Counted from the first letter of the stretch, positions 1 to 45,098 are shown. The stretch: DNA of 64,000 nt from Nanobdellota archaeon (GCA_030697505.1 JAUYPX010000026.1:53322-117321); one strand, 5' to 3'. Program-made: numbers and translations. Notes: generated by a model not told the origin, from the sequence alone.

Positions 1-1762
1 CCCATTGCAGAGACCGGTCTGCCTCAATATCTCTGATTATTCTCTTCCCTAGCAAGCTCCAATAATATTTCGGCTTGATGCCAGTTTCTGGTTTTTTCAT
101 GCGCACCATTTCCGCAGTAAGTACTGTGCCCGCAGGAATATCGACATGCGCTACCACGCTCCGTCGAGCTGTTCTTGCAACTTCATCTTCACGCAGAGTT
201 CGCCGTTTCACTCCATCTCCTAAAGCCATCTCAATATTTCTAACTGCCCGTACTAAGGCTTCTAACTCTCCGAAAACTAACGACGCTTTATGATCAGGCC
301 CTGGCAAAGTTTTATCGAGAGTAAAATGCCGCTCCAATATTCTTGCTCCTAAGGCAACTGCAACCGTAGAAGCTTCAATACCCATGGTATGATCAGAATA
401 ACCAATATGTAATGTAGGATAGCGTTCACGCAAACGAGCAATAACATTCAGATTTGCATCTTGGAACTGAGTAGGGTAATCAGATACTGCATGGAGTAAA
501 ATTATTTGTTCATTTCCTACTTCTTGACAGACTTGAATAGCTTCATCAATTTCTTCATATGTTGCCATGCCTGTTGAAATGATCATCGGTTTTCCACATT
601 TGGCCGTATCTTTCAACAGAGGTAAATTAGTAATATGCGGAGATCCTATTTTGTAGGCAGGCGGATCAACCTTCTTTAAAACTTCCAGGCTTTCCGCATC
701 CGACGCAGTAGATAGAAAAATAGTCCCTTTCTTTGCCGCATATTCCGCCAGCATCTTGGTCTGATCTTCGGTGATTTTCAATCGTTCCAGCATGGTTTGA
801 TAATTCCCTTCTGGACCATCATTCTCTTTTTGATAGGTAACTTTCGGAGTAAACTTACTGGTGCCGGTCTGTGGATTAAAGTTTTGAAACTTCACTGCAT
901 CTGCGCCTGCTTCTACCGCTAAATCTATCAATTTGTGAGCCAGATCCATATCTCCATTATGATTAACCCCTATTTCAGCGATAATAAAGGTTGGATGCTC
1001 ATCACCGAGCTGCTTTCCGGCAATAGTTATTGGTTTCCGAGAGATATGGTTTTGTTTTCCTTGCTCTAACCTTTTTCTTTCCTCAAGTATTTTTTCCGCT
1101 ACCTGCCAATCAGCATACGTATCAATGTCTAAAGAATCATCTTGAGACATAATTACAGGGATATTCTTTTCTCCATACAAATTTCCGGTAGAGAGAAATA
1201 CTTCTTTGCGAACTACATAGGCTGCGCCATTAAGGATGTAATGAGTCCTTCGCAAAGATTTGTTAAAAAAAGCAGTCTTGTTTTGAAAAACTAATTTTTC
1301 GCCCTCTTCCACAAACATCAGTTCCGGTTTTTCCTTCACTAGTGCAACTGTTTGACTGGAATCAGCATCATTATCAACTAATTTCTTGATACATTTTTCA
1401 ATTTCAGCAGTTTTTCGAAAAGGACAGGTTGGCTGTAAAAGAACCACTAAATCATATTTTTCCTGTTGCTCTTTCTCAAATTCTGTCACCACATAGCGCA
1501 AGGAATCCTGTGAGGTGGTAGCGTCTTCCGCTAAATGCGCCGGCCTTTTTTGCACTACACAAGGAAACCTACTGCTTACTTTCAGAATTTCATCACTGTC
1601 GCTGGAAACGACGATCTTATCGATCAGCGCTGATCGTACTGCCGCCTGGATAGTATGTCCTATCAAAGGAACTCGACCTAAATTTTTTATATTTTTCCCC
1701 GGAAGTCTTTTTGAACCGCCCCGAGCTAAGATAACTGCAAGTATCTTTTTCCCTTTATACAT
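1..1762 (-). CDS. Bifunctional fusion. The N-terminal domain is an acylneuraminate/nonulosonate cytidylyltransferase (NeuA-like CMP-NulO synthetase). The C-terminal domain is a NeuB-type nonulosonic acid synthase with SAF domain. The 3' end runs a few codons past the window start.
   Basis: Absent from the ORF track because it is open at position 1. Manual minus-strand translation starts at the ATG at 1762..1760 and gives MYKGKKILAVILARGGSKRLPGKNIKNLGRVPLIGHTI (CMP-sugar synthetase motif). It continues without a stop through ...EERKRLEQGKQNHISRKPITIAGKQLGDEHPTFIIAEIGVNHNGD...KFQNFNPQ...PAYKIGSPHITNLPLL... (NeuB TIM-barrel). It reaches a SAF-like ...DIPAGTVLTAEMVRMKKPETGIKP... at the edge, about 587 codons in all. 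Confidence 0.8.
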   Translation of the reverse strand, partial: MYKGKKILAVILARGGSKRLPGKNIKNLGRVPLIGHTIQAAVRSALIDKIVVSSDSDEILKVSSRFPCVVQKRPAHLAEDATTSQDSLRYVVTEFEKEQQEKYDLVVLLQPTCPFRKTAEIEKCIKKLVDNDADSSQTVALVKEKPELMFVEEGEKLVFQNKTAFFNKSLRRTHYILNGAAYVVRKEVFLSTGNLYGEKNIPVIMSQDDSLDIDTYADWQVAEKILEERKRLEQGKQNHISRKPITIAGKQLGDEHPTFIIAEIGVNHNGDMDLAHKLIDLAVEAGADAVKFQNFNPQTGTSKFTPKVTYQKENDGPEGNYQTMLERLKITEDQTKMLAEYAAKKGTIFLSTASDAESLEVLKKVDPPAYKIGSPHITNLPLLKDTAKCGKPMIISTGMATYEEIDEAIQVCQEVGNEQIILLHAVSDYPTQFQDANLNVIARLRERYPTLHIGYSDHTMGIEASTVAVALGARILERHFTLDKTLPGPDHKASLVFGELEALVRAVRNIEMALGDGVKRRTLREDEVARTARRSVVAHVDIPAGTVLTAEMVRMKKPETGIKPKYYWSLLGKRIIRDIEADRSLQW

Positions 1763-1795: not shown

Positions 1796-2734
1796 TTAGT
1801 ATCCTTGTTCTAAATCAACAACATTGGTGATCTTCCCGGTAGCGGCAAAAAGCCGTAAGTTCTTGATGACATCATCTAAATGCGGCGCTCCCTCTACCAC
1901 AGCAGCCCTATAAGGAGAAAGGATAATGTTATCTAATTTTTCAAAAGGAAATCTGGTTGAAAATTGTACTGAGTTAGCGCCTTTTAAAAAATCATCATAC
2001 CACACATCGATTGCTGCTGCCTGAATTTGTTTATTCTTTAATGCCGTATACAACGCTTCTTGGTCTATGACCGGCCCTCGTCCTACATTGATCAAGCCAG
2101 CTGACTTTTTCATAAACGCAAATTCTTTCTTTCCGATCAATCCCCTTGTCTCTGAAGTTAACGGCAAGGTCACCACGATGTAATCTGCCTGAGAAAGCAC
2201 TTCTTTCAAATTATTGGTAACATAAATCCCTGGATCTTTCTGCCCCATTTCCTGACGTCTGAAAACCATCAGCCTGCAGCCAAAAGGGCCAAGAAATTCC
2301 GACAATTTTTTTCCGATCTTCCCATACCCTAAAATGCCCACCACTTTTCCTTTCAGGGTTTCAGGTAATCGTTCCTGCCTCTGCACGACCATCTTCTTGG
2401 TTAAGGCCAGAAGCAGAGTGACGGCATATTCGGCGACATAGTGGCTGTTGGAATGCGAATTGCAGAGCAAAATATCTTTTCTTTTCAGCACAGAAAGAGG
2501 TAATTTTTCCACCCCTGCGCTGGGAGTTTGAATTAATTTCAAGTTAATGCAATTATCTAGCACTTTTTCAGTAACCTTCATCCCCAGCAAAACATCTGCT
2601 GAGCCAGCCAGGGAAGCTAGATGATCTTCCGTATACTCATCAGGAAAAATAATAGTGTAAAGATCTTGAAGGCCATTGACTAATTTCTCCTTATCCGTAT
2701 CGTTAAACTTATGCAATGAAAGAAGTGTTAGCAT
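1796..2734 (-). CDS. D-isomer-specific 2-hydroxyacid dehydrogenase family (NAD-binding), paralog 1
   Basis: ORF-track protein has the GxGxxG Rossmann signature VGILGYGKIGKKLSEF plus catalytic-domain similarity to glycerate/phosphoglycerate dehydrogenases. Confidence 0.75.
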   Translation of the reverse strand: MLTLLSLHKFNDTDKEKLVNGLQDLYTIIFPDEYTEDHLASLAGSADVLLGMKVTEKVLDNCINLKLIQTPSAGVEKLPLSVLKRKDILLCNSHSNSHYVAEYAVTLLLALTKKMVVQRQERLPETLKGKVVGILGYGKIGKKLSEFLGPFGCRLMVFRRQEMGQKDPGIYVTNNLKEVLSQADYIVVTLPLTSETRGLIGKKEFAFMKKSAGLINVGRGPVIDQEALYTALKNKQIQAAAIDVWYDDFLKGANSVQFSTRFPFEKLDNIILSPYRAAVVEGAPHLDDVIKNLRLFAATGKITNVVDLEQGY

Positions 2735-2757
2735 TTTTTTATTTCCCCATGCTAAAA

Positions 2758-3933
2758 TCAGAGCCGCAGCTCCTGCACAAATTCTTCAAGGTAGTGAACT
2801 CCTTTCGCAAATTCGGCTTCATCTACTCCTAAACTTATTCTGATATGATCATCCCAATGTTCGCCGAAGACCATTCCTGGGGTAGCCGCTACCCCTTTGC
2901 TCTCTACCAGCTTGGTACAAAATTCATCTGAGCCCAACCCTGATCCAGAGATGTTGATAAAACAGAACTGGCTGCCTTGAGGCTGGACTAATGATAATAG
3001 GCCATTTTGTGAAATCATCTTCTGAAGTTCCAGAGCATTCTTCTGTAACAAGGTACGGAAAGAAGACAAATAATCTGCAGGTAAAGAAAAAGCGGCGCAG
3101 GCTCCTTTTTGGATGAAAGTGCAGACATTGGTATTGACATGATGCTGCATTTCTGCGATATGCTGCGCGATTGGGAGCGGAGCTATCACATAGCCTAATC
3201 TCCATCCAGTCATGCTATACGCTTTGCTGAAGCCATTTACAGTTATCAGTTTTCCTGCCAATCCCTTGACTGAACCAAGACTAAAATGGGTTTCATCTGA
3301 ATAGGCTAACTTTTCATATACCTCGTCAGAAAGAAGATAAAAATCATGTTTTATCGCCAGCTCAGCCAGCTGCAGCAGCTGCTCTTTTGAAAACATTTTT
3401 CCGGTCGGATTATGCGGAGTGTTGACGATCAATAATTTCGTTTTGGGAGTGATATTTTTTTCAATCTCCTCAATATCTAAAGAAAAATCGTTCTTGTTCA
3501 AGTCAATGACATTTATTTTCACTGACGGTTCAGCCAATTTCAATTGAGGGATATAGCTGGGATAGCAAGGAGCGATGACTATGGCTTCATCTTCCGGTTC
3601 TAGTAATGCTAACAAACTTAGATAAATAGCCTGTTTCGCACCAGTAGTCATGACGATATTTTGGATGCCGCATTCAATGCCATTTTCTTCGGATAATTTT
3701 TTCTTGATCAATTCTCGTAATTCCACCAACCCATACTTATGGGAGTATTTGGTATATCCAGCATGTAGTGCGGCGACGGTGCTTTCTTTTACCGCTGCAG
3801 GAGTTGGATAGGGAGATTCGCCTAATCCCAAAGAAATAACTTCCTTTCCTTCCTGAATTCTTTTCCGGGTCGCTTCGCTCACCTTCAACTGTAGAGAACC
3901 GCTAAAATCCATTCGTTTACTTTTATTCATCAT
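2758..3933 (-). CDS. PLP-dependent aminotransferase, class I/II (aspartate/aromatic aminotransferase fold)
   Basis: Motifs NTPHNPTG and SKAYSMTGWRLGY (PLP-lysine region) are typical of fold-type I AAT-family enzymes. Confidence 0.8.
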   Translation of the reverse strand: MMNKSKRMDFSGSLQLKVSEATRKRIQEGKEVISLGLGESPYPTPAAVKESTVAALHAGYTKYSHKYGLVELRELIKKKLSEENGIECGIQNIVMTTGAKQAIYLSLLALLEPEDEAIVIAPCYPSYIPQLKLAEPSVKINVIDLNKNDFSLDIEEIEKNITPKTKLLIVNTPHNPTGKMFSKEQLLQLAELAIKHDFYLLSDEVYEKLAYSDETHFSLGSVKGLAGKLITVNGFSKAYSMTGWRLGYVIAPLPIAQHIAEMQHHVNTNVCTFIQKGACAAFSLPADYLSSFRTLLQKNALELQKMISQNGLLSLVQPQGSQFCFINISGSGLGSDEFCTKLVESKGVAATPGMVFGEHWDDHIRISLGVDEAEFAKGVHYLEEFVQELRL

Positions 3934-5194
3934 TCCGTTTCTCTACCCAAACCGGTTTCTTTAACTTCCAAGTTCCATCCGCAAATTCCCAGAGATTCTT
4001 ATTGCGAAACTTTTCAATACACTCCAAAAACCGTCCCTCGGTTATGCCCAGGTAGTCAAGGAAATCCTGGAAATACTTTTTAGGAAACTCCTGATCAAAC
4101 TTTTTAACTAAAGCGACTGCTTCTTCGCGGGTAATTTTATTGTTCCGGCATTCCTGTGCGGCATCATAAGTAGCCCGGCCGATCCCAAATTTGACTAATT
4201 GTGTATAATAATGGAAAGGATCGCTTTTATCATCGATGCTGCTATACTTGGAGTAAGACCCTTCCGTACGTTCGGTGTTTGCCTCAAATCCTATATGCTC
4301 CACCGCATAATAATACGCTTCCTGAGGATCCCATTTAACATACCATCCTAAATAATGGACTTGAATACCTTTTTGATCATACTCTTCTGGATCGATGGGA
4401 AGATATGCTTTTAGGTCAGTCATGCTAGCTCCGTGCTTTTCAATTAATTCCTTTATCGGAACTCCGCCTAAACACATCTTGTCATAATCGGCGCCAGTAT
4501 GATAATGTTTTTTGCGTTGCGCCCCATCATTTCCTGGGTCGCCATAATCAACTCCTGGTTCTCCATAAAAGACCAGAGGGATATCGAACTTAGCGGCAAT
4601 CTTAGGCGCCAGGTTCTTCTGCCCTAAAATAAACGGTTGGAACGGATGCAATAAATTTTCAAATGCCAGTTTAGTCAAGAGTTTATGCACTTTCCCATTT
4701 GGATGAAAAAGAATATTATCAAACCCTGCACCAATCCAATGCTGCATATTTCGCCAACCTACTTCAGTATACATGTGCGGAGCCCAGGTTACGGTGAGAG
4801 GATTCATTTTATATTTATATTTTAACAAGTGAGCTACCATCACGCTATCCTTGCCGCCGCTGCCGGAAACAATACAATCGTGCGACCCATCGCTCTTTCT
4901 ATATTTGTCGCATAAATCCCATAATAATTTCTCTCGTTCCTGCCAATCGATTTGATTAGTTTTTTTTTCATGATACCGACAGGCCGCGCATACTCCCGTC
5001 TCATCAAAATCAATGGTCTCTGTTGCCGAATTAGAATTATGTTTAAATTCGGATTTCTTGGCTAAAGGCCGCTGATTAGAGATGATGCATTTCGTGCAGT
5101 ATTTGACCTCCCGTGGTAATCCGTAAGGAACATCTACTACCTCAACTTGTTCTGTTTGTTGATGGTTTACATCTTCTAATCTATTTTCTGCCAT
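3923..5194 (-). CDS. N-acetyl sugar amidotransferase (WbuX/WbpG/PseA/AglX family; PP-loop ATP pyrophosphatase)
   Basis: N-terminal Cys pairs (CTKCIISNQRP...CAACRYHEKK, zinc-ribbon) precede the PP-loop IVSGSGGKDSVMVAHLL. It sits next to HisH/HisF paralogs, the canonical WbuXYZ/AglXYZ arrangement. Confidence 0.75.
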   Translation of the reverse strand: MAENRLEDVNHQQTEQVEVVDVPYGLPREVKYCTKCIISNQRPLAKKSEFKHNSNSATETIDFDETGVCAACRYHEKKTNQIDWQEREKLLWDLCDKYRKSDGSHDCIVSGSGGKDSVMVAHLLKYKYKMNPLTVTWAPHMYTEVGWRNMQHWIGAGFDNILFHPNGKVHKLLTKLAFENLLHPFQPFILGQKNLAPKIAAKFDIPLVFYGEPGVDYGDPGNDGAQRKKHYHTGADYDKMCLGGVPIKELIEKHGASMTDLKAYLPIDPEEYDQKGIQVHYLGWYVKWDPQEAYYYAVEHIGFEANTERTEGSYSKYSSIDDKSDPFHYYTQLVKFGIGRATYDAAQECRNNKITREEAVALVKKFDQEFPKKYFQDFLDYLGITEGRFLECIEKFRNKNLWEFADGTWKLKKPVWVEKRNDE

Positions 5195-5203
5195 TTTTCC
5201 ACC

Positions 5204-6703
5204 TCATGCATTAGCAAATAAATTGAGCATATCTAATCCAAATTCCCCGCTTTTTTCAGGATGAAACTGGCATCCATAGATGTTTCCTTTTTTAAAAACG
5301 GCGCAGAATTTTTGTCCACCATACTCAGTGGTAGCCAACACCGTGCCCTGATCATCCGGGACGAGGTAATAGGAATGGATAAAATAAACTTTGGTATTCA
5401 AAGGAGTGTCGCCTAAAATAGTATTGCTCCAAGCCAGGCTTGATGCCGGAGTAAGAGTATTCCACACCACATGCGGTACACGGTAACCTTTGACAGCAAC
5501 TTCTTGCGGTTTCTTGAATCCGACCACTTTTCCTTTGACGATATCTAAACCTTGATGCCTTCCAAATTCTTCACTTTCACTCAATAATAATTGCGCGCCT
5601 AAGCAGATCCCTAAGAGCGGCTTTCCTGAGGCGACATACTCTTTTATCGCTGACGCCAGTCCGCGTTTCTCGAGCTGGGCCATGCCTTCTCCATATGCGC
5701 CTACTCCTGGCAATACCAAATGTGTCGCCTCTTTAACTTCCCAGGAAGCACAGACTATTTTAACCTGAGCTCCAATCTTTTCAAAGGCGCTAATCACGCT
5801 CATGATATTTCCAACACCGTAATCGATGATCGAAATCACCTTTCCTTTTTTCTTCTCATGATTTTTAACTTCTCCTTTTACGGATTCATGATTTTTTCTA
5901 AAAGATAGGTTCGTTTTTTCCTTTTCCAATGCAGTTTTAATTTCAGGGAGGGTAGACTTTTTGTAATGCAATATCGAGCCCACGGCAACCGCATCACAGT
6001 TTGTTTCTATTGCACATTTTACCACGTGCTGCGGATTTCCTGCGCCGCCAGAAGCAATAATTGGAACAGACACTAATGTTGAAATTTTCTGCATCAATTC
6101 AAGGTCATAACCAGATTCGCAGCCATCTCTATCTACAGAAGTGATAAGCAGCTCGCCTGCTCCCAGTTCCACCAGTTTTACTGCCCACTCCACCGCATCC
6201 AAACCGGTCCTTTCCCGGCCATTGTCTACATACGCTTCCCATTTTTGAGGGCCTATTTTTTTAGCTTCGATGGAACCAACAATGCATTGTGAACCAAATC
6301 TCCTCGCCGCTTCCGTGATCAATTCAGGTCTCCGAGTAGCGGCAGTGTTTATAGCAACTTTATCTGCGCCCGCATGCAACAGCTCCTGAATATCTTCCAG
6401 TTTTCGTACCCCGCCGCCTACGGTCATGGGCACATACACGCCTAAGGAGATCGCTTCTTTTACCACATTCGATAAATTATTTCGCCCATATAAACTGGCC
6501 ACGATATCAATATATAAGATTTCATCGGCGCCTTGCTCATAATATTGTTTCGCTAATTCCGCCGGTTTTCCCACTACTCGCAGGCCTTCTAACCTGAGTC
6601 CCTTTACAACGTTAGAACCTTTAACATCCAACCTAGAAATAATCCGTACATTCCTCATGAAAATACCACTATAACGGGTGTTTTTAAAGATTATGATATC
6701 CAA
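5204..6703 (-). CDS. Fused imidazole-glycerol-phosphate-synthase paralog. HisF-like cyclase/ammonia-channel domain is N-terminal and HisH-like class-I glutamine amidotransferase is C-terminal (WbuZ-WbuY-like).
   Basis: N-terminal half has IISRLDVKGSNVVKG, DEILYIDIVAS, PMTVGGGVR, GAGELLITSVDRDGC and PIIASGGAG (HisF). C-terminal half has IIDYGVGNIMSV, LVLPGVGAYG, GICLGAQLL and QFHPEKS (HisH catalytic Cys/His). Confidence 0.85.
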   Translation of the reverse strand: MDIIIFKNTRYSGIFMRNVRIISRLDVKGSNVVKGLRLEGLRVVGKPAELAKQYYEQGADEILYIDIVASLYGRNNLSNVVKEAISLGVYVPMTVGGGVRKLEDIQELLHAGADKVAINTAATRRPELITEAARRFGSQCIVGSIEAKKIGPQKWEAYVDNGRERTGLDAVEWAVKLVELGAGELLITSVDRDGCESGYDLELMQKISTLVSVPIIASGGAGNPQHVVKCAIETNCDAVAVGSILHYKKSTLPEIKTALEKEKTNLSFRKNHESVKGEVKNHEKKKGKVISIIDYGVGNIMSVISAFEKIGAQVKIVCASWEVKEATHLVLPGVGAYGEGMAQLEKRGLASAIKEYVASGKPLLGICLGAQLLLSESEEFGRHQGLDIVKGKVVGFKKPQEVAVKGYRVPHVVWNTLTPASSLAWSNTILGDTPLNTKVYFIHSYYLVPDDQGTVLATTEYGGQKFCAVFKKGNIYGCQFHPEKSGEFGLDMLNLFANA

Positions 6704-6756: not shown

Positions 6757-7599
6757 ATGAACAGTTCTATATTAGTCATGGGCTATGATGTGGAAAGATA
6801 TATGTCTCCCGAAGATAGGATGTCTTCTCTGCAGGGAGTGAAAAAAATAATTGCCCTACATAGGGCTTACCACGCACCTTTCACCTTCTTCATGCTTGGC
6901 AAGCTTTTAGAATACGATGACTATGTCGCAGAATTGAAAAAAGAACTTGCCCTTGCTGGGGATTTAGCGGATATCCAACAACATACCTATTCTCATCCGC
7001 TCTTAAAAGTCAATGAGAGATACATGCGCGAGAAAAATAGGAAACCCCTTTCTGTCTCTGAAATAGACGCAGAAATTAAGAAAGCTAATCACATCATAGA
7101 AAGTAAATTAGGAGTAAAGGTATTTGGACTAAAAACTCCTATCGGTTTTCACAAAGGCCTTCAGGGAGAAAAAGCCATATTGGATGTCCTTAAAAAAAAT
7201 GGCATGCGCTTTGTTTCTTCAGACCTGGTTGGGAAAGGCGATCATCCGCCTGCGCTCTTGGAAGAAGACGGAAAGCTGAGGCAGCACTATGTATATGAAA
7301 ATGGCCTAACTGAAGTTCCCACTCACGGTTGGCACGACACCCATATACTGTTAAAGAACATGTCTCCCTATAAAGGCGTTAAGGAAGCCTGTGCATACTA
7401 CCAAAATGAATTAAGCAAGGCCCATAATAAAGGCATGATGTACGCTCCAAATTTACATCCTTTTATATATAGCGACCGTGATCACGACCCGCAGGCTTCC
7501 ATCGTGGAAACTTTCTTATCATTTGCAAAAGCAAATAAAATACCGGTGATGAGTTATGCGGGATATGTTGAGCATATTCAAAAAAAATCTAACCCTTAA
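6757..7599 (+). CDS. Polysaccharide deacetylase-like (NodB/CE4 homology domain), divergent
   Basis: HTYSHP-type His motif and overall NodB-like features. Weak, by-eye assignment. Confidence 0.45.
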   Translation: MNSSILVMGYDVERYMSPEDRMSSLQGVKKIIALHRAYHAPFTFFMLGKLLEYDDYVAELKKELALAGDLADIQQHTYSHPLLKVNERYMREKNRKPLSVSEIDAEIKKANHIIESKLGVKVFGLKTPIGFHKGLQGEKAILDVLKKNGMRFVSSDLVGKGDHPPALLEEDGKLRQHYVYENGLTEVPTHGWHDTHILLKNMSPYKGVKEACAYYQNELSKAHNKGMMYAPNLHPFIYSDRDHDPQASIVETFLSFAKANKIPVMSYAGYVEHIQKKSNP

Positions 7600-7610
7600 T
7601 AAGACTATCG

Positions 7611-8279
7611 CTAAGGCCATGACAGGAGGATCTTGCGAAGATCAGTGAAATTTTCGACTATGAAACTTATTTTTGATTTATCTGCCTTTTCCATCTCACC
7701 TAAACCCCAGCCAACCAGGATCATCTTGGTGCCCAGCTTATGGGAAGCCTCAATGTCCGTAGCAGTGTCGCCGACATAATAGTTTCCCTCAAAATCATGC
7801 GGCAAAAAATGTTCTACCAAACGCTGGTATTTTCTATCAGCATGACTCTGCCCAACGGGAACTGGACCGGTAAAGATCACTTTTGAAAAAAAATCTGAAA
7901 TTCCCAAATTTTTCAGCTGATTTACACTATTGTTGATATTATCTCTTAGAGATAGAAGCACTAATTCATATTTTTTTTCCTGCAGCTCAGCTAGGAGCGG
8001 CCGTACTGATTGATGCAGCCTATCCATATCTAGATATCTGCTTTCTTCAAGAATAGAATTTCTATACTGCTTAAAATTAATGATTCTATCTGAAGAGAGA
8101 TGATATTCTTGCACTAATATCTGAGCATCTTTTATCCCTTTCCTTTTAAGATGGAGATATTTTTCTTTGGAGAGGGGAGAAATATTGATCGCTGCACAGC
8201 ATTCACAAAAAACAGCATAATATCGTTCACTTATATCGATGAGCGTGCCATCAAAATCAAAAATTATTTTTTTTCCCAT
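7611..8279 (-). CDS. HAD-superfamily hydrolase/phosphatase
   Basis: N-terminal DxDGTL motif (IIFDFDGTLID). A C-terminal GD..D motif is likely (YVGDTATDIEAS). Confidence 0.7.
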   Translation of the reverse strand: MGKKIIFDFDGTLIDISERYYAVFCECCAAINISPLSKEKYLHLKRKGIKDAQILVQEYHLSSDRIINFKQYRNSILEESRYLDMDRLHQSVRPLLAELQEKKYELVLLSLRDNINNSVNQLKNLGISDFFSKVIFTGPVPVGQSHADRKYQRLVEHFLPHDFEGNYYVGDTATDIEASHKLGTKMILVGWGLGEMEKADKSKISFIVENFTDLRKILLSWP

Positions 8280-8287
8280 ACAACCAT

Positions 8288-9313
8288 CTAGTTCAACAAG
8301 GTATAATTTCGCGGCAATCGCTGCCCATTTTCTTCTACAAAAACTTCATCCCAGTGCCTATACATCCATAATTTATCCTTAAAGTTCCCCAACCGTGGCT
8401 CTACTTTTTCGCCATTGAACAACTTTAACATCAGATAAGGGGTGTTCAAACCGCTGGCGATAGTATGGGCATGAGTGGCGCCGATGCGGGGATTTATCTC
8501 AAAGAGCAATGCTTCTCCAGTCTGCAGGTTTTTGAATATCTGGACGTTTATAGGACCGATCAAACCTAAATGTTCCACAATCTCTTTGGCCATGGTAATC
8601 AAGAGTGGATCCTTGACTGTAACTCCTCTATACGCTGCTCCGTATCTAACTTCTTCTCGAGTTCTGGGTACCACTCCGAGTACTCTGCCATTAAAATCAG
8701 CAGCGACATCGACACTAAACTCTTTCCATGCGCCCAAGTATGGTTGAACAATAGGTATCGGCACTTGACTTGCCTTTTCCTGTAACTCTTCTAAACTATG
8801 GATTACATGAGTGTGTTTTGAGCCGGTTCCTATACGAGGCTTAATGAACAAAGGAAAAGATAATCCGCCAGCTTTCACTTTCTCAACTGCTTCTTCCAAT
8901 AGGAAGGTCGGTACCGTCTTAAAATGGTGTTTCGCAAAATACGTGTAAGCGAGATACTTATCATCACAGATCTTAACTCCCTCAAAATGAGAAACCGCCA
9001 CCATCGTTCCAGTTTCCTTCTCTATTAACTGTTTATGTTGAGAAAGGGCCATGACTTCGCCGTCTGCTCCAGGAAAAAGAATATCTATTTTTTCCTTCTT
9101 ACATACTTTGATGATCTCCGTGACATAAGTAGGATCATCCCCGCGAGGAACTTTGTAAAATGCGTCCGTGAAATATCTGCCTGCATTATCATCCCGCGCA
9201 TCGGTGCTTACCAGATAGACATCAAATTGGTCCTGCTGCCGCACTCCTTTTATGAAACCTTGTGCAGCTACCGTTCCGATTCCCGTTATTAAAACTCTTA
9301 TTTGTTTTTTCAT
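8288..9313 (-). CDS. ATP-grasp domain ligase (carboxylate-amine ligase-like)
   Basis: Domain layout and motifs resemble CPSase/PylC-like ATP-grasp enzymes (ALLFEINPRIG... region, central Gly-rich loop). About 340 aa. Confidence 0.65.
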   Translation of the reverse strand: MKKQIRVLITGIGTVAAQGFIKGVRQQDQFDVYLVSTDARDDNAGRYFTDAFYKVPRGDDPTYVTEIIKVCKKEKIDILFPGADGEVMALSQHKQLIEKETGTMVAVSHFEGVKICDDKYLAYTYFAKHHFKTVPTFLLEEAVEKVKAGGLSFPLFIKPRIGTGSKHTHVIHSLEELQEKASQVPIPIVQPYLGAWKEFSVDVAADFNGRVLGVVPRTREEVRYGAAYRGVTVKDPLLITMAKEIVEHLGLIGPINVQIFKNLQTGEALLFEINPRIGATHAHTIASGLNTPYLMLKLFNGEKVEPRLGNFKDKLWMYRHWDEVFVEENGQRLPRNYTLLN

Positions 9314-9382
9314 ACTTTATCAACAGAGTTGTCAGTTTAAAAGTTTTTTGAATACTAAATCTTTTTCTGATTAGGTTAAACC

Positions 9383-10345
9383 CTATCTGGATTTATCTTT
9401 CTGTTCCAGGTTATCAAAAAAATGAACTACCTTTTTACCGCTATCGCGAGCAATTGTTTGTTGGACTTCCATCACCTGCGCCCCAAGGTGAGGGGTTAGC
9501 AGAATATTATAACCCCGTTTTGCTAGTTTAATGAGTTCGTGCTCGGAATGAGGCGGTTCTTCTTCAAAAACATCGGTAGCATACCCTGCGACGTGGCCGC
9601 TTTCAATCGCCTCCGCCAAGGCCGTGAAATCGAAGAGCTGTTCTCGGGAAGAATTGATGATATAAACGCCTTTTTTTAGCAAAGATATCTTCTCCCTATT
9701 TAGCAATCGATGTGTTTCTTTATTCAAAGGAAGATGCAGAGTTAAAAAATCCGATTGCCGCAGTAATTCTGGTAATGATACTAAAGTAACCCCATGCTTC
9801 GTAGCATATTCTTCAGTTTTTTCCGTATCCTGGGCTATAACTTTCATGCCATGGGCTCTAGCTCTTATAGCTACTTCAGTTCCAATCCTTCCCAAACCTA
9901 AGATACCTAAGGTTTTATTTTTAAAACTGCACCCGGTTAGTAAATCTCTTTCCCATTTTCCATCCAGCATCGAAAGATGAGCTTTTATCAGATTCCTGGT
10001 TAGATTCACTAACATGGCTATGCTATAATCAGCTACATTTTCTTTGCTTAGTTCCGGGCAATTGAATATCTGTATGCCCTTCTTATTTGCCGTTTCCAGA
10101 TGAACATTGTCTAAGCCGTTACCGGCACGTACCGCGCACAGTAGATTGGAGTTGTTAAGCAGTTCTTGATCTAACTTTGTTCTACTTCGGAATATGATTC
10201 CATCATAACCTTTAATGATCGCCTTTAACTCCTCTGCCGAGATATCTGAGCGAACATCTACCTCTAGTTTGGAGTTCCCTTCTTCAACTCCTTCCATGAA
10301 TGCATTTATATCAATGTTATCGCTGATCAGAACTCTTCGGATCAT
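9383..10345 (-). CDS. D-isomer-specific 2-hydroxyacid dehydrogenase family, paralog 2
   Basis: LGILGLGRIGTEVA Rossmann motif. Paralogous to 1796..2734. Confidence 0.75.
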   Translation of the reverse strand: MIRRVLISDNIDINAFMEGVEEGNSKLEVDVRSDISAEELKAIIKGYDGIIFRSRTKLDQELLNNSNLLCAVRAGNGLDNVHLETANKKGIQIFNCPELSKENVADYSIAMLVNLTRNLIKAHLSMLDGKWERDLLTGCSFKNKTLGILGLGRIGTEVAIRARAHGMKVIAQDTEKTEEYATKHGVTLVSLPELLRQSDFLTLHLPLNKETHRLLNREKISLLKKGVYIINSSREQLFDFTALAEAIESGHVAGYATDVFEEEPPHSEHELIKLAKRGYNILLTPHLGAQVMEVQQTIARDSGKKVVHFFDNLEQKDKSR

Positions 10346-15418: not shown

Positions 15419-16690
15419 ATGAAGATGATCGTACGAGAGCGGTGCAGGGTAGACGATAGTGAACTCATTGAGTTATTTGATCTAGGAGAGTTATATCTCT
15501 CCCATTTTCAAGATCCCCGCCAGCCGCCGCAACAGCCGAAAGTTCCATTGGTTCTTTGTATGGGAAAAGACAGCAAGATGGTGCAGCTCAAACATAGCGC
15601 CCCTTCTTCTAATATGTACGAAGAATACTGGTACCGCTCCGGGATCAACCAGACTATGGCTGCTGAGTTGAAGTCTATCGCTGCCTCTGTATTGGAGACG
15701 ATGCCATTAAAAGAAAAGGATATCGTTGTCGATGTCGGCTGCAATGACGGGACTTTAGTCAAGAATTATCCGAAGCATCTTACTATTGTAGGTTTTGATC
15801 CTGCTAAAAATTTATATCAATATTCTTCTCAGCACACCACTAAAACTATAGTCAATTATTTTTCAGCAGAAGAATATTTCAAGCACTTTCAAGAGAAAGC
15901 AAAAGTCTTGACCAGTATCGCCATGTTTTATGATTTAGAAGATCCTAATAGATTTGTAAGCGACGTTTATAAAGTTCTAGATCAAGAAGGTTTGTGGATT
16001 ATCCAGATGAGTTATTTGCCCTTGATGCTGAAACAGATGGCTTTTGATAATATTTGTCACGAACATCTGGAATATTACTCGCTGCAAAGCCTAGCCTATC
16101 TCTTAGAACGGCATGATTTTAAGGTAGTAGATTGCCAGCTCAACGACATCAATGGGGGAAGTTATCGCATCTACATCCGCAAAAAAAATGCTAATCCTCT
16201 CTTATTCAGCACCGCGCAATACCGCGATGTCGCCGATTTCAGGGTGCAGAGCATTCTTGAATACGAAAAAAGCCTGAGATTGGACCGGCCGGAGACGTAT
16301 TTCAACTATTTTGAAAAAATGAAGGAAATCAAACAGGAAACTCTTGATTTTTTACAGCAAGAAAAAGCAAAAGGGAAAAAGATATTCGGCTATGGCGCTT
16401 CCACCAAAGGGAATACTTTACTGCAATGGTACGATATCAACCATCAGAATCAGCTTATTGAAAAGATAGCCGAACGCAATCCAGACAAATGGGGTAAAGT
16501 CACCATTGGGACAAACATACCGATCTGTTCAGAAGAAGAAGCAAGAACAGAAAAACCAGATTACTTGTTTGTCCTTCCTTGGCATTTCCGTTACGAGTTC
16601 TTGAAACGAGAGACTGATTTTCTACAGCGAGGAGGAAAATTCATCTTCCCACTTCCCAAGTTCGAAGTTGTTGGCATAGATGACATCTAA
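15419..16690 (+). CDS. TylCIII-like sugar C-methyltransferase family (SAM MTase with C-methyltransferase C-terminal domain), paralog 1
   Basis: VDVGCNDGTL SAM motif, IAMFYDLEDPNRF, GYGASTKGNT and KPDYLFVLPWHF. Paralogous to 20665..21915. The N-terminal zinc-ribbon is degenerate in this copy. Confidence 0.7.
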   Translation: MKMIVRERCRVDDSELIELFDLGELYLSHFQDPRQPPQQPKVPLVLCMGKDSKMVQLKHSAPSSNMYEEYWYRSGINQTMAAELKSIAASVLETMPLKEKDIVVDVGCNDGTLVKNYPKHLTIVGFDPAKNLYQYSSQHTTKTIVNYFSAEEYFKHFQEKAKVLTSIAMFYDLEDPNRFVSDVYKVLDQEGLWIIQMSYLPLMLKQMAFDNICHEHLEYYSLQSLAYLLERHDFKVVDCQLNDINGGSYRIYIRKKNANPLLFSTAQYRDVADFRVQSILEYEKSLRLDRPETYFNYFEKMKEIKQETLDFLQQEKAKGKKIFGYGASTKGNTLLQWYDINHQNQLIEKIAERNPDKWGKVTIGTNIPICSEEEARTEKPDYLFVLPWHFRYEFLKRETDFLQRGGKFIFPLPKFEVVGIDDI

Positions 16691-17435
16691 AATGTCAAAA
16701 CTCTTCATCTCCTATGTACTTCCTGCCTACAATGAGGAAGAAAACGTTCTTCTTCTGATGGACAAAATAACTTCTGCCATGAAAGATATCAAAGAGGAAT
16801 ATGAGATTATCTTTGTCATCGAAGGGACTGATCAGACCTATCCTCTTCTGCTAAAATATAAAGAAGAACATCCAGAAGTAAGCATGAGATTATTCTACCA
16901 GCCTGAACCTTTAGGGCTGACGTACGCCTTCAAGAAGGGATTTGAAAACATCGCAGAAGAAGCGACCCATGTCGTGACCATGGATGTGGATTTAAACCAT
17001 AAGCCTGAAGAATTGCCTTTGCTTATAAAAAAAGCAAAAGAAGGCTACAATGTAGTTATCGGTTCCCGAGCGTTGGATGGGGCGCAGGTCATGAACGTTC
17101 CTGCTTGGAAAATAATGATCAGCAAATTTGCTAATACAGTGTTTAATAAAGCTTTTAATATAGAGGTTAAAGATAAAACCAGCGGCTTTAGGATGATCGA
17201 TGCTGAAACCATCAAGGAAGTGGCGCCTTTAGTACAAGCTAAAAATTTTGAGGGATTGATGGAGTTTTTGTTGATCGCCAATTACCAGAACAAATCCATG
17301 GCCGAAGTGCCTATCACCTTAATCCATCGGCAGTTTGGGGAGACCAAATTCCATCTCTTTAAGACTGGAATAGATTATGCTAGATTGCTATTGAAGCAGA
17401 AATATAGGAAACGGAAGAAAAAAATAACAAAATAA
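16680..17435 (+). CDS. GT2 glycosyltransferase, DPM1/polyprenyl-phosphate sugar synthase-like
   Basis: N-terminal VLPAYNEEENV and D-rich DxD region (VTMDVDLNH). 251 aa, no obvious C-terminal TM. Confidence 0.8.
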   Translation: MTSKMSKLFISYVLPAYNEEENVLLLMDKITSAMKDIKEEYEIIFVIEGTDQTYPLLLKYKEEHPEVSMRLFYQPEPLGLTYAFKKGFENIAEEATHVVTMDVDLNHKPEELPLLIKKAKEGYNVVIGSRALDGAQVMNVPAWKIMISKFANTVFNKAFNIEVKDKTSGFRMIDAETIKEVAPLVQAKNFEGLMEFLLIANYQNKSMAEVPITLIHRQFGETKFHLFKTGIDYARLLLKQKYRKRKKKITK

Positions 17436-17454
17436 TGCTATTGATACGTAACTC

Positions 17455-18477
17455 ATGAAAAAAGCGCTCATTACCGGTATAACTGGACAAGATGGCTCCT
17501 ATCTGGCAGAATTTCTTCTCAAAAAAGGATATGAAGTGCATGGATTAGTGAGAAGGGTTTCAGTAGATACTTTAGGCAGGATAAATCATCTCAAAGATAA
17601 AATAATCCTACACCATGCCGATTTGATGGATCAATTCTCTATCACCAAGGTGATTAAGGAAGTACAGCCAGAGGAAGTGTATCATCTAGGGGCGATGAGT
17701 TTTGTCGGCACTAGCTGGCGTCAGCCCGTGCTTACTGGAGAAATCACCGGGATGGGGGTAGGAAGAATTTTAGAAGCGATCCGCTATGAAAATCCAAAAG
17801 TCAGATTTTACCAGGCCTCCAGCTCAGAAATGTTCGGCGCTGCTCCTGCGCCACAGCATGAAGAGACAAAATTTCATCCGCGCAGCCCATACGGAGTGGC
17901 TAAAGTATATGCTCATCATATGGTGGTCAATTATCGCGAGAGCTTTAACTTATTCGCTTGCAGCGGTATTTTATTCAACCACGAAAGTGAACGTAGAGGG
18001 TTGGAATTTGTCACCAGAAAAATAAGCCATGCTGTGGCGAGGATAAAACTTGGTGCGCAAGAAGTATTGGAATTAGGAAACTTATATGCGAAAAGAGATT
18101 GGGGACACGCCGAAGATTATGTCAAAGCGATGTGGCTGATGCTCCAGCAGGAAAAGCCGGATGATTTCGTCATAGCCACCGGGGAAACTCATAGTGTTAA
18201 GGAATTTGTAGATGAAGCTTTCAAAGTGGTAGGAATGCCCTTAACCTGGGAAGGAGAAGGCGTGCATGAAGTGGGCAAATTTCAAGGGAAGGTAGTTGTT
18301 CGGATCAATCCTAAATATATCCGTCCAGCTGAAGTGGATCACTTATGCGGCGATTACAGCAAAGCAAAAAAAATTCTTAAGTGGGAGCCTGCCATCAAGT
18401 TCTCGCAATTAGTTGAGAGAATGGTGTCAGCGGATTTGGAAAATGTCAGAAAAGAATTGGCTTATCACCGGCATTGA
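17455..18477 (+). CDS. gmd: GDP-mannose 4,6-dehydratase
   Basis: MKKALITGITGQDGSYLAEFLLKKGYEVHG is a near-canonical Gmd N-terminus. 340 aa, extended SDR. Confidence 0.9.
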   Translation: MKKALITGITGQDGSYLAEFLLKKGYEVHGLVRRVSVDTLGRINHLKDKIILHHADLMDQFSITKVIKEVQPEEVYHLGAMSFVGTSWRQPVLTGEITGMGVGRILEAIRYENPKVRFYQASSSEMFGAAPAPQHEETKFHPRSPYGVAKVYAHHMVVNYRESFNLFACSGILFNHESERRGLEFVTRKISHAVARIKLGAQEVLELGNLYAKRDWGHAEDYVKAMWLMLQQEKPDDFVIATGETHSVKEFVDEAFKVVGMPLTWEGEGVHEVGKFQGKVVVRINPKYIRPAEVDHLCGDYSKAKKILKWEPAIKFSQLVERMVSADLENVRKELAYHRH

Positions 18478-19381
18478 AGGTTTTGTAGGAAGTCATTTTT
18501 TCCCGGCGTTGCAGAAACGAGGATATTCAGTTTTTGGGACTACCTGGAAAAAGGAACTTGCAGACCATAAAACTATCTTTTACCTTGATCTTTCTGATCC
18601 TCAGCAGATCGAAGCGATGGTCCAAAAGATAAGACCGCGCTATCTGGCCTTAATCGCCGGGTTCAGTTCCATGCGAGATAGCTTCCAAAAACCAGAAGAA
18701 TGCCTGAAGATAAATTATGAAAGCACGCAGCATTTTTTAAAGGCAATCAGAAAGAACAAACTGAAAACAAAAGTGTTGATCATCTCTTCCGCCATGATGT
18801 ACTGTCCTTCAGATGAAATACTTACTGAAGCTTCAGCCATCTGCAATAGTTCTCCATATGCAGAATCAAAGATAAAACAAGAGGAGTTAATCAAAGAATT
18901 TCCCGAAATAGAAATAGTAGCAAGTAGAAGCTTCAACCACACTGGCCCAGGACAATTGGACAGCTTTATTGTGCCAAAATTAGCAAAAGGATTTGCTGAA
19001 ACAAAGGAGAATAATATTACATTTGAACTAGGAGATATAGACTCAGAACGTGATTTTCTAGACGTCAGAGATGTCTGTGACGCTTATAGGATATTATTAG
19101 AAGAACCCACTGACCATAACATTTATAACGTCTGCCGTTCGCAATGTTTTTCAGTGAGACAAATTATCAACATTTTAGAGAAAAAGACGGGAAAGAAAGC
19201 AAAAATAATCATTAATCCTGAGGTTGTAAATCGTAACGAACGAAAAATAATTCTGGGAGATAATCGCCGTATTTTAAATAATACCTCTTGGAGACCGGTT
19301 ATAAGTTTCGAACAGACCGTATATGACACGTATCTTTATTGGCAAGAGAGAAAAAATGAAGGAAAATGGAGCACTTACTGA
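18443..19381 (+). CDS. NAD(P)-dependent SDR acting on GDP-4-keto-6-deoxymannose (Rmd/Fcl-like reductase or epimerase)
   Basis: Rossmann WLITGIEGFVGSHF and YAESK (YxxxK). Directly follows and overlaps gmd. Start is chosen at the internal ATG (MSEKNW); the ORF track starts at 18413. Confidence 0.6.
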   Translation: MSEKNWLITGIEGFVGSHFFPALQKRGYSVFGTTWKKELADHKTIFYLDLSDPQQIEAMVQKIRPRYLALIAGFSSMRDSFQKPEECLKINYESTQHFLKAIRKNKLKTKVLIISSAMMYCPSDEILTEASAICNSSPYAESKIKQEELIKEFPEIEIVASRSFNHTGPGQLDSFIVPKLAKGFAETKENNITFELGDIDSERDFLDVRDVCDAYRILLEEPTDHNIYNVCRSQCFSVRQIINILEKKTGKKAKIIINPEVVNRNERKIILGDNRRILNNTSWRPVISFEQTVYDTYLYWQERKNEGKWSTY

Positions 19382-19453
19382 ATTTTAGAAATGTCAAAGA
19401 AATTCGACACCACTGGTGAACACCCCAGTAGCATGCCGGTCGAATTTCAGACC

Positions 19454-19479
19454 CTTCTTTTCAAGAAAAGAAGATTTTA
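19454..19479 (+). terminator. Hairpin plus T-run after the gmd-reductase pair
   Basis: CTTCTTTTC-aa-GAAAAGAAG inverted repeat followed by ATTTTA. Confidence 0.4.
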
Positions 19480-19550
19480 TAAAGGGAAGAATTTCTAAAA
19501 AAAAGATCATTCAAAATTCCACAGATCAAAATAAAAATGAGACCGCCGCT

Positions 19551-19949
19551 ATGAAATTCCAAGTGTTGAAACCGACCTGTAACCTTCAAACTATTTTTGA
19601 CGGTAGGGGCGGAATCTTTACCTGGGTTCCACAGGAAGCGATAATGGAGTTTAACCTGCTCTACTGCAATCCCGGAACGGTGAGAGGAAATCATTCCCAT
19701 CCTGAGTTTACGGAATACTTTCTGGTTGTTGAGGGTTCAGGAGTGATGGTATTCAAAGAAACTCCAGATTCAAAAGAAGAAGTGGTTCACATGTCCCGCG
19801 GAGTTTGCACTCGCGCCGAACCGGGGGTTGCTCATGCTTTTCATGCCATTACTCCCGTCGTTGTGGTGGCTATGCTTTCCAAACCCTGGGACACTTGTAA
19901 TCCGCCTATCGTCCATGAAGATGTTACTCTCAAAGGCATGAAAAAGTGA
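19551..19949 (+). CDS. Cupin-fold sugar ketoisomerase/epimerase-like protein (FdtA/WxcM-like)
   Basis: About 133 aa with RGNHSHPEF and a second His cluster (VAHAFHA). Start is at the internal ATG (MKFQV); the ORF track starts with GTG at 19416, spanning the upstream hairpin. Confidence 0.5.
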   Translation: MKFQVLKPTCNLQTIFDGRGGIFTWVPQEAIMEFNLLYCNPGTVRGNHSHPEFTEYFLVVEGSGVMVFKETPDSKEEVVHMSRGVCTRAEPGVAHAFHAITPVVVVAMLSKPWDTCNPPIVHEDVTLKGMKK

Positions 19950-20668
19950 AAACAGTTGCTTTGTTTGGGGCGAATGGATTTGTTGGCGGTGAAATTCTTA
20001 AAGCATTTCATCAAGCAAACCAATCAGCGGATCAATCATCAAACTATTCTGTATCTTCCATAACTCGGGAGAATTTTGAGAATTTTATGGGTAAAAGCTA
20101 CGACTATGTCATCAATGCGGCCATGCCTTCTGCTCGCTTCAAGGCAAAAAATGATCCTCTCTGGGATTTTCGCGAATCGGTGGAAAAAACGGCGAAAATG
20201 TATTATGGTTTTAAATGCAAGAAGTTCATCCAGATCAGTTCCATCTCTGCTCGCTGCCAGCCAGATACTATCTACGGCCGACATAAGCTTGCAGCAGAAT
20301 CGTTGGTGGATGACGGCAATAGTTTGATTGTGCGTCTCGGGCCGATGTATGCTTCTACTCTTTCCAAAGGAGTCTTGATAGACATGCTCAGAGGCGGCAA
20401 AGTCTTTGTCGGAGCTGATAGCAGATATGCTTTTGCTCCATTATCATTTATCGGCAAGTGGATTGTCAATAACTTGGATCGTAAAGGGATCGTTGAAGTG
20501 GGGGCAAAAAATTCGATTGCTTTAGGAGAATTGGCCAGGAAGTTGAACCTTGATGTGCATTTTGAAGGAAAAGATGACCATCAAGAAATACTGGGCCACG
20601 AGAATGATTTTCCAGACGTTGAGGTGGTTTTCGATTTTATGAGGGAACAGCAGAGGAAACTGAAATGA
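19946..20668 (+). CDS. Short-chain dehydrogenase/reductase-type NDP-sugar ketoreductase-like protein
   Basis: Rossmann ALFGANGFVGGE and YGRHK (YxxxK). 240 aa. 4-bp ATGA overlap with the upstream gene. Confidence 0.55.
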   Translation: MKTVALFGANGFVGGEILKAFHQANQSADQSSNYSVSSITRENFENFMGKSYDYVINAAMPSARFKAKNDPLWDFRESVEKTAKMYYGFKCKKFIQISSISARCQPDTIYGRHKLAAESLVDDGNSLIVRLGPMYASTLSKGVLIDMLRGGKVFVGADSRYAFAPLSFIGKWIVNNLDRKGIVEVGAKNSIALGELARKLNLDVHFEGKDDHQEILGHENDFPDVEVVFDFMREQQRKLK

Positions 20669-42452: not shown

Positions 42453-43433
42453 TCACCCGTTTTTATTTCGGAGCTGTCCGGCAATCCATTGCTTTGTTCT
42501 TTCCAACCCTTCATCAAAAGTTATTGATTCCTTGAATCCCACATTTTCTATTTTTTTAGTGCTGGGTATGGGCTTAAGATTTTCTCCCAACCGGGGAGCG
42601 ATAAATTCTGGCCTCATCCCGGGAGGACCGTACTTAGATATCACTTGATTGGCTAATTGCAGCACACTGATCCTATTTCTAGATGCCACATTGTAATCCT
42701 GGCCGATCGAGCGGTTATTTTTATATAAAATGAGGTTGGCATCAACTGCATCATCCACAAAAGTGAAACATCTGATCGCTTCACCGGTGCCGCATACTTG
42801 GGGAGGCAGCCCTTTAAGGACCCGCGATAAAAAGATACCGACTACCCCCGCTTCACCAGTATAATCCTGCCGTGGTCCAAAGACATGAAAATAACGCAAG
42901 ACGGTAGCTTTAATGCCGTAAAGCCGATGGTATAATAAGAAATATTTTTCTGCTGCCAATTTGCTTATACCGTACACAGTAGAAGGATTCATAGCGTCAA
43001 CTTCTTCAAAAGGCTTGTCGCTGCTGCCAAAAACTGAACCCGTGGAAGCATGTATTATTCTGGCATCGCTCTCGCTTTTTCTCATGATTTCCGCGATATT
43101 AAAATTTCCGACCACATTTGTTTGAACATCGATAGTCGGGTCTTTTAAACTGACCACCAGTTTGGAAGCGGCTTCATTAAAAATGATATCGCTTTCTTCG
43201 ACCCAGGGCTTTACCTCCTGATAATCCTTAATATCAGCTTTGACGAATGTAAATCGCGGATCGGTTTTCCAATGAGCTATATTATTAAGGCTGCCATTAG
43301 TGCCGGCGAGGTTATCATAACAAATCACTTTTTCAGCACCTAATTCTAACGCTTTATCAACTAAATGACTGCCTATAAATCCGGCTCCGCCGGTTACCAA
43401 GACTACTTTATTTTTAAATAGGTCCTTATTCAT
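42453..43433 (-). CDS. NAD-dependent nucleotide-sugar epimerase/dehydratase (extended SDR)
   Basis: VLVTGGAGFIGSHLVDKALELG and YGISK. Confidence 0.8.
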   Translation of the reverse strand: MNKDLFKNKVVLVTGGAGFIGSHLVDKALELGAEKVICYDNLAGTNGSLNNIAHWKTDPRFTFVKADIKDYQEVKPWVEESDIIFNEAASKLVVSLKDPTIDVQTNVVGNFNIAEIMRKSESDARIIHASTGSVFGSSDKPFEEVDAMNPSTVYGISKLAAEKYFLLYHRLYGIKATVLRYFHVFGPRQDYTGEAGVVGIFLSRVLKGLPPQVCGTGEAIRCFTFVDDAVDANLILYKNNRSIGQDYNVASRNRISVLQLANQVISKYGPPGMRPEFIAPRLGENLKPIPSTKKIENVGFKESITFDEGLERTKQWIAGQLRNKNG

Positions 43434-45058: not shown

Positions 45059-45098
45059 GTCTCTTTTTCTAACTGTTATCTATTTTTCTTATTCTATC

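Follow-up and report, generated by a model that had tools for sequence, protein, structure and literature searches.

A HisF-HisH fusion beside a WbuX-type amidotransferase in a Nanobdellota archaeon: a probable acetamidino-sugar module

The window analyzed here, a 64,000-nucleotide stretch of DNA from a Nanobdellota archaeon (GCA_030697505.1, JAUYPX010000026.1:53322-117321), carries two adjacent minus-strand genes located exactly where a preliminary description had placed them. The first (5204..6703; stop codon 5204-5206) is one open reading frame (ORF) of 499 aa when read from a TTG at 6703, and joins a HisF-like barrel to a HisH-like glutaminase with no stop codon or frameshift between the halves. 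The second (3923..5194, 423 aa) encodes an amidotransferase of the WbuX/N-acetyl sugar amidotransferase (NASAT) type. It starts 9 nt past the stop codon of the fusion and is preceded by a GGTGG ribosome-binding motif. Judged from sequence, the two genes probably make up a WbuX/WbuY/WbuZ-type module for acetamidino (acetimidoyl) sugars with a legionaminic-type target, in which the fusion would have arisen by loss of a stop codon.

While the 499-aa ORF is present as previously described, the protein itself is probably 484 aa in length, beginning at ATG 6658 rather than TTG 6703. The ATG is the likely start because it was chosen by the gene caller on an independent Logan assembly, because 96–97% of the 499-aa ORF is covered by homologues, and because family members begin with ‘MKKxRIIPRLD’ without an extension. 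A TTTATAAA box is located ~70 nt upstream of this ATG.

At this position GenBank annotates only a 211-aa HisH (MDP3698726.1) that begins at the internal Val274 of the fused ORF. The flanking accessions belong to WbuX (MDP3698725) and a deacetylase (MDP3698727), and no protein record seems to exist for the HisF half. The short GenBank entry could be taken as a sign that a sequencing or assembly error deleted a stop codon or frameshift between two genes; however, the probability of this is negligible. The window and the Logan assembly of run SRR13727529 show 100% identity along 15,194 nt (15.2 kb), a similar linker joins the two domains in at least 125 homologous clusters, and a structure prediction is confident over both domains (pTM 0.93). 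An artefact was rejected on the strength of the identical independent assembly and the more than 120 homologues that share the architecture.

In the 484-aa form, a (βα)8 barrel assigned as a WbuZ-type ammonia channel (5909..6658, aa 1–250) is followed by a Lys/Glu-rich linker (5843..5908, aa 251–272) and a class I glutaminase domain of the HisH type (5207..5842, aa 273–484) with the triad Cys352, His466 and Glu468. Across the family, the linker ranges from 18 to 84 residues. Domain profiles, the check that the preliminary description had proposed, bear out its claim of HisF first and HisH second in one protein: Pfam identified His_biosynth at aa 20–249 (E 7e-66) and GATase at aa 292–494 (E 1e-20) of the 499-aa protein. 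The claim that this order is opposite to eukaryotic His7 also holds, as aa 274–481 of the fusion align to residues 6–211 of PDB 1JVN, placing the yeast HisH at the amino terminus. The AlphaFold2 model of the fusion has a mean pLDDT of 94.3, with low confidence only in the linker. The HisF-like half superimposes on HisF structures with a TM-score of ~0.9, and a fold search of the PDB matched single-domain HisF chains only.

Against the NCBIfam models, the fusion protein scored over the cutoff for hisH (TIGR01855, 195.1 bits, cutoff 105.4) and under it for hisF (TIGR00735, 278.8 bits, cutoff 294.55), WbuZ (TIGR03572, 270.5 bits, cutoff 299.7) and AglZ/HisF2 (NF038364, 193.6 bits, cutoff 310). 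Five other fused members scored 262–277 bits on the WbuZ model. Among 120 fused homologues, the glutaminase triad is invariant and the ammonia-gate residues are invariant or nearly so.

The 423-aa neighbor scored 358 bits on the WbuX model (TIGR03573, cutoff 203.2). The earlier proposal that HisF and HisH paralogues serve a WbuX-type amidotransferase here is supported. Against the Legionella LpNASAT chain (PDB 8WEX) it scored 499 bits with ~60% identity. Its PP-loop SGGKDS and its zinc tetracysteine motif (C33TKC36...GVC69AAC72) align with the same elements of 8WEX and agree with the NASAT motif definition CxxC...[GN]xCxxC (PMC10607449).

A scan of GTDB representative genomes identified 80 related loci, 74 of which contain both halves. 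The pair has a WbuX homologue no more than 400 bp away in 59 of the 74 and one elsewhere in the locus in six more; five of the remaining nine are at contig ends. In four further fused examples the neighboring gene is a WbuX homologue (46–63% identity), directly downstream on the same strand in three and convergent in L084.

The HisF half is 40–51% identical to true HisF and GenBank calls its relatives HisF or HisH. On these grounds, along with its score on TIGR00735, the fusion could be a housekeeping imidazole glycerol phosphate (IGP) synthase that lies beside glycan genes by chance. The residue at the catalytic center points elsewhere. From an alignment to HisF structures, the barrel keeps R5, D11, E46, K100 and E169, and the position of the cyclase catalytic aspartate (D130 in Thermotoga maritima) is occupied by Glu131. 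In a survey of 340 HisF-type domains, this position is Asp in all 38 HisH-HisF fusions, Glu in 64 of 65 separate HisF genes beside WbuX, and Glu (111), Gln (32), Asp (3) or His (2) in the fusions with HisF first (E or Q in 143/148). D11 and the counterparts of both HisF phosphate sites (G82, G83, N104, T105, D176, G179, G204, G205 and S228) are conserved among fused and separate members alike.

Profile comparisons agree with this assignment. The HisF domain in the window scored 386 bits on a profile of WbuX-linked HisF2 proteins and 305 bits on a profile of H-F (HisH first) fusions, a gap of 81 bits, and the WbuX-linked profile is preferred by 156 of 158 fused domains. Further evidence comes from gene context: the adjacency to WbuX is kept in most related loci, Legionella included, and no his genes were found in the 64-kb window or in the 6 kb past its left edge. 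A housekeeping role is therefore very improbable and may be regarded as largely refuted by the residue, profile and context evidence, including a hisF score that falls under the cutoff; the preliminary description was justified in setting this protein apart from histidine biosynthesis. WbuZ is described as a second HisF homologue that accompanies an authentic copy in the his operon. DPANN archaea usually lack the his pathway, and the fusion would then be the only copy.

The Asp-to-Glu/Gln signature offers annotators a simple guard against giving such proteins the name imidazole glycerol phosphate synthase, and against shortened calls such as the 211-aa HisH of this GenBank record.

The order of the two domains, called reversed in the preliminary description, is not an inversion. 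HisF precedes HisH in all 74 loci that have both halves. The loci of Legionella pneumophila subsp. fraseri and L. worsleiensis are among these; each keeps two unfused genes, and its HisF2 passes the WbuZ cutoff (307 bits). Since hisF2 lies before hisH2 in every related locus, the HisF-first order is native to the clade and inherited from an operon. The two genes are in different frames in 61 of the loci (mostly abutting or overlapping), in the same frame with one intervening stop in eight, in the same frame with a longer gap in one, and fused in four (Woesearchaeota, Micrarchaeota, Saccharibacteria and Sedimentisphaerales). The eight single-stop loci (L007–L011 and L013–L015), in which hisF2 and hisH2 are separated in frame by a TAA or a TGA, look like intermediates of fusion or fission. 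From this graded series of 61, eight and four loci, the fusion is suggested to have arisen when the stop codon that divided adjoining hisF2 and hisH2 genes was lost, a single such loss being enough. A fused chain would fix the partners in a 1:1 ratio and keep the glutaminase and channel in permanent contact. Judging from the fold, both termini of the (βα)8 barrel should lie on the face that docks HisH; therefore, either fusion order would be sterically possible. A neighbor-joining tree of the HisF domains presented one large fused clade and several small ones, with 16 parsimony changes, but it carries no support values, includes fragments and was left unused for counting fusion events.

The implied rarity of the fusion is not supported. 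In a search of 5.8 billion proteins, the matches listed include at least 120 proteins, all of 432–545 aa with both domains and 50–84% identity, and the sources named among them are Woesearchaeota, Nanoarchaeota, Promethearchaeota and Omnitrophota. The order with HisF first (F-H) was confirmed by a domain-order check in 125 of 128 collected proteins. The fusions form at least 125 clusters at 90% identity and at least 35 at 50% identity, and are found in DPANN, Asgard, the Candidate Phyla Radiation (CPR), Omnitrophota and Planctomycetota. Among the best 150 representatives at 50% identity there are 35 F-H fusions, 39 H-F fusions and 73 lone HisF proteins; fusions in the order of His7 exist in prokaryotes too. 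The F-H architecture is widespread, mostly in uncultured lineages, and poorly annotated.

Triple fusions that include WbuX were absent from the 278 collected proteins. Five relatives of 700–930 aa (P0138, P0146, P0149, P0195 and P0196) were considered as WbuX fusions and rejected, as they are HisH-X-HisF proteins with an amino terminal HisH, an insert of ~260 aa and then HisF, or with extra carboxy terminal sequence. They are probably histidine-pathway fusions of the HisH-HisA-HisF type.

Literature searches, with thin coverage of subscription journals, found neither a described F-H fusion nor any PseA biochemistry. The reviews of his-gene fusions consulted give hisHF (HIS7) and no F-H fusion, and the present architecture adds a fifth kind, with F-H order and in a paralogue. 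The F-H fusion is best described as an architectural variant, widespread yet undescribed, that a trivial genetic event produced in a known system. It differs only modestly from that system and does not amount to a new one.

Downstream of WbuX on the same strand, with tight spacing, are genes for a class I/II aminotransferase (2758-3933) and a D-2-hydroxyacid dehydrogenase (1796-2734). These lie between WbuX and a gene that encodes a fusion of NeuA, NeuB and NeuC. The window holds the first 587 aa of the latter (1..1762, minus strand), comprising a NeuA-like cytidylyltransferase and a NeuB-like synthase; the NeuC part lies past the left edge. The whole protein (L002 13433-16381) has 982 aa with NeuA at aa 8–224, NeuB at aa 258–584 and NeuC at aa 600–965. 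Its NeuC score is over the cutoff (424.5 bits, cutoff 235.9) and its NeuB score is just under (389.3 bits, cutoff 399.65), and GenBank names it only ‘UDP-N-acetylglucosamine 2-epimerase’ (MDP3698722.1). The fusion, WbuX, the aminotransferase, the dehydrogenase and, three genes downstream, the NeuA-NeuB-NeuC protein make up a gene string on one strand, and the last probably supplies the nonulosonic acid to be modified.

The same association is seen in the relatives. Among 52 loci of at least 12 kb, NeuB was found within 8 kb in 45, NeuC in 43 and NeuA in 49. Relatives carry a full set of genes resembling those for legionaminic acid (Leg): a short-chain dehydrogenase/reductase (SDR) dehydratase, a DegT aminotransferase, a hexapeptide acetyltransferase, Epimerase_2, NeuB and a cytidylyltransferase. 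A hydrolysing epimerase of the NeuC type fits neuraminic- or legionaminic-type pathways and not pseudaminic ones. Within the window, an SDR gene resembling a 4,6-dehydratase (42453-43433, minus strand) and a gene that fuses a hexapeptide acetyltransferase to a DegT aminotransferase (43430-45058, minus strand) may tentatively be considered as equivalents of LegB and LegH-LegC for the early steps of a legionaminic-type pathway, with scores below the cutoffs. Both gene types also flank fused homologues in L083, L084 and L086.

The preliminary description had left two targets for the acetimidoyl group, the nonulosonic acid and a diacetamido-uronic acid. The second would require the same enzymology, with a 2,3-diacetamido-2,3-dideoxy-hexuronic acid modified as in ManNAc3NAmA of Pseudomonas aeruginosa O5 or ManNAc3NAmA6Thr of Methanococcus maripaludis, and the sugar supplied by genes in other parts of the window, for a Gfo/Idh/MocA protein, an acetyltransferase-aminotransferase and a sugar dehydrogenase. 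The window does have a Gfo/Idh/MocA oxidoreductase (45099-46076) that best matches an archaeal UDP-GlcNAc 3-dehydrogenase (197 bits), the hexapeptide acetyltransferase-DegT fusion, an AsnB-type amidotransferase and a nucleoside diphosphate (NDP)-sugar 6-dehydrogenase, and a uronic acid of this kind is the target in the sole archaeal system backed by genetic evidence. However, these genes lie 35–55 kb away while the module is found within the nonulosonic-acid gene string. The genes assigned to the diacetamido-uronic acid (42453-46076) fit LegB/LegH-LegC-like functions about as well, the sugar dehydrogenase scores best as a UDP-glucose 6-dehydrogenase, and no homologue of the Gfo/WbpB-like gene was found in the 52 related loci. 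A uronic-acid target is accordingly unlikely. Of the two, the nonulosonic acid is the stronger candidate because NeuB is present in most of the related loci and the WbpB-like gene in none, because the NeuA-NeuB-NeuC gene belongs to the same string, and because the nearest relative of the WbuX is the Legionella enzyme. The O-antigen of Legionella other than serogroup 1 is reported to be a 5-acetamidino-7-acetamido nonulosonic acid. With reasonable confidence, the target may be taken as a nonulosonic acid of the legionaminic type.

From the domain architecture, conserved residues, gene linkage and family breadth established directly here, we infer every catalytic step and the identity of the substrate. 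Glutamine would be hydrolysed by the carboxy terminal HisH-like domain at the invariant Cys352-His466-Glu468 triad. By analogy with the T. maritima HisF-HisH structures, the released ammonia would pass through the amino terminal HisF-like barrel, where the gate is kept and the cyclase aspartate is lost. The barrel would then hand the ammonia to the adjacent PP-loop, zinc-containing WbuX amidotransferase. This handover is supported by two published observations: in P. aeruginosa, HisF2 co-precipitates with WbpG, and in M. maripaludis, deletion of the HisF homologue MMP1083 led to smaller flagellins while deletion of the HisH homologue MMP1082 did not. In the latter organism, deletion of MMP1081 caused loss of the acetamidino group. 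As proposed from the 8WEX structure, WbuX may activate the N-acetyl carbonyl with ATP so that ammonia displaces the oxygen (O to NH). The substrate is most likely a legionaminic-type nonulosonic acid, either free or linked to cytidine monophosphate (CMP), made by the NeuA-NeuB-NeuC fusion of the same gene string.

Several points weigh against this scheme. The HisF half falls just short of the curated WbuZ cutoff and scores slightly higher on the hisF model, and it retains D11 and both phosphate sites of true HisF, which a passive pipe would not obviously need. The absence of his genes holds for the 64 kb and the 6-kb flank; a his pathway or a second copy may lie elsewhere in the metagenome-assembled genome. 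The early genes of the Leg pathway are ~38 kb from the module and weakly assigned, with every score below its cutoff, and the substrate could be another N-acetyl sugar in place of a nonulosonic acid. We know of no biochemistry on any fused member. More generally, no NASAT has yet been shown in a reconstituted reaction to convert an N-acetyl to an acetamidino group with ATP (PMC10607449).

Because the barrel keeps D11 and both phosphate sites, there is room for a role beyond that of a channel. As a tentative alternative, the HisF-like half may bind a phosphorylated ligand at the phosphate sites it has kept, for example the nucleotide-sugar substrate or an intermediate in adenylated form. Such a ligand could conceivably, though doubtfully, switch on the glutaminase by allostery, as N′-[(5′-phosphoribulosyl)formimino]-5-aminoimidazole-4-carboxamide ribonucleotide (PRFAR) does in IGP synthase, or join in catalysis. 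Conservation of these residues across fused and separate members agrees with this idea, as does the requirement for MMP1083 but not MMP1082 for full-sized flagellins. However, the catalytic D130 is replaced and no ligand is known, the same residues may serve only for fold stability or docking of WbuX, and the MMP1083 phenotype is explained equally well by a channel or scaffold role. Taken to its full extent, this alternative would, with only a modest chance of being correct, make the fusion a substrate-gated core of a three-domain amidine synthase that senses either the nonulosonic acid in its nucleotide-activated form or, on WbuX, the adenylated intermediate. If true, it would be a clean case in nature of the allosteric machine of IGP synthase being redeployed for glycan chemistry, and in DPANN and CPR organisms without a histidine pathway it would be the sole surviving HisF/HisH homologue.

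Returning to the scheme with the barrel as an ammonia channel, an acetamidino module with a legionaminic-type target predicts that a DPANN archaeon presents a surface with a charge-neutralised (acetamidino) sugar of this type. Such chemistry has so far been known mainly from Legionella and Campylobacter. With glutaminase and channel in a single chain, the fused protein would also be convenient for reconstituting, for the first time in vitro, the reaction that leads from glutaminase through channel to NASAT.

Around the module are a number of lineage-specific genes (1796-3933, minus strand; 6757-10345; L002 16383-17363) that are almost never present in the 80 related loci. They encode a phosphoglycerate-dehydrogenase-like enzyme, a haloacid dehalogenase (HAD) phosphatase, the class I/II aminotransferase, a second 2-hydroxyacid dehydrogenase, two ATP-grasp ligases and, in divergent orientation, a polysaccharide deacetylase. 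A possible role for these genes would be to attach an N-acyl group, derived from an amino acid or a hydroxy acid, to the nonulosonic acid.

The whole window (1-64000) is made up of glycan-related genes and a tRNA scan of it identified no tRNA or tmRNA genes. If the genome is of DPANN size, 64 kb of glycan genes would be a very large share; a relative has its fused gene on a contig of ~1 Mb. Fusions of pathway partners recur at 43430-45058 (minus strand), 62199-63983 (plus strand), 54849-56156 (minus strand) and 23177-24547 (plus strand). Examples join a hexapeptide acetyltransferase with a DegT aminotransferase; an NDP-sugar pyrophosphorylase with a phosphomannomutase (PMM)/HAD domain and a mannose-6-phosphate isomerase cupin; a cytidylyltransferase with a phosphoenolpyruvate (PEP) mutase; and a CBS domain with an SDR. 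A glycan or lipid that carries phosphonate is suggested by a phosphonate set on the minus strand (48666-56156), with genes for PEP mutase, a thiamine pyrophosphate-dependent decarboxylase-like protein, an iron alcohol dehydrogenase, a cytidylate-kinase-like protein and a CDP-alcohol phosphatidyltransferase. On the plus strand (15419-21915), a GDP-mannose 4,6-dehydratase, an SDR and a cupin lie between two C-methyltransferase genes, which suggests a branched or C-methylated deoxyhexose.

One of the closest known systems is the lipopolysaccharide (LPS) locus of Legionella pneumophila. Its WbuX homologue, the enzyme of 8WEX, has the same PP-loop and zinc tetracysteine motif, its HisF2 is 56% identical to that of the window, and the order of HisF and HisH is the same. 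In both cases the module lies among nonulosonic-acid genes, and the Legionella product is known to be a 5-acetamidino nonulosonic acid. For serogroup 6, HisF, HisH and an ‘LPS biosynthesis protein’ are reported within the nonulosonic-acid cluster, and the O-antigen is given as a 5-acetamidino nonulosonic acid. The differences are that the Legionella paralogues are two genes with ends that overlap in different frames, that its HisF2 passes the WbuZ cutoff while the domain in the window does not, and that Legionella is a bacterium with its own his operon.

The systems of Escherichia coli O145 (WbuX/WbuY/WbuZ), P. aeruginosa O5 (WbpG/HisH2/HisF2) and Campylobacter jejuni (PseA or PtmG with Cj1315c/Cj1314c) draw on the same three protein families, which are likewise proposed to share the work among a glutaminase, a barrel channel and a PP-loop amidotransferase. 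Unlike the window, each has three separate genes, in an order that we take to be HisH then HisF. Their substrates also differ, being N-acetylfucosamine (FucNAc) in E. coli O145, ManNAc3NAcA in P. aeruginosa O5, and pseudaminic (Pse) or legionaminic acid in C. jejuni. The AglX/AglY/AglZ proteins of M. maripaludis (MMP1081-1083) form an archaeal acetamidino system as well, in that case with genetic evidence. There the genes are separate, the target is a hexuronic acid of the archaellin N-glycan, and the barrel of the window scores well short of the cutoff on the AglZ/HisF2 model. That the partners are separate genes in the described wbu, wbp and agl loci, as the preliminary description had noted, agrees with the literature consulted.

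His7 and the prokaryotic HisH-HisF fusions (PDB: 1JVN) also combine a glutaminase and a (βα)8 barrel in one chain and share the rationale of fixed stoichiometry and ammonia tunnelling. Their domain order is the opposite, the cyclase aspartate is kept in all 38 such fusions surveyed, and they serve histidine biosynthesis without a WbuX partner. Finally, the T. maritima HisF:HisH heterodimer (PDB: 1GPW) has the same fold (TM-score ~0.9), the same gate residues (R5, E46, K99 and E167 in T. maritima), D11, and the Cys-His-Glu triad. The protein in the window differs in the replacement of D130 by glutamate, in the covalent linkage of its parts, and in having an amidotransferase as its partner instead of the PRFAR cyclase reaction.

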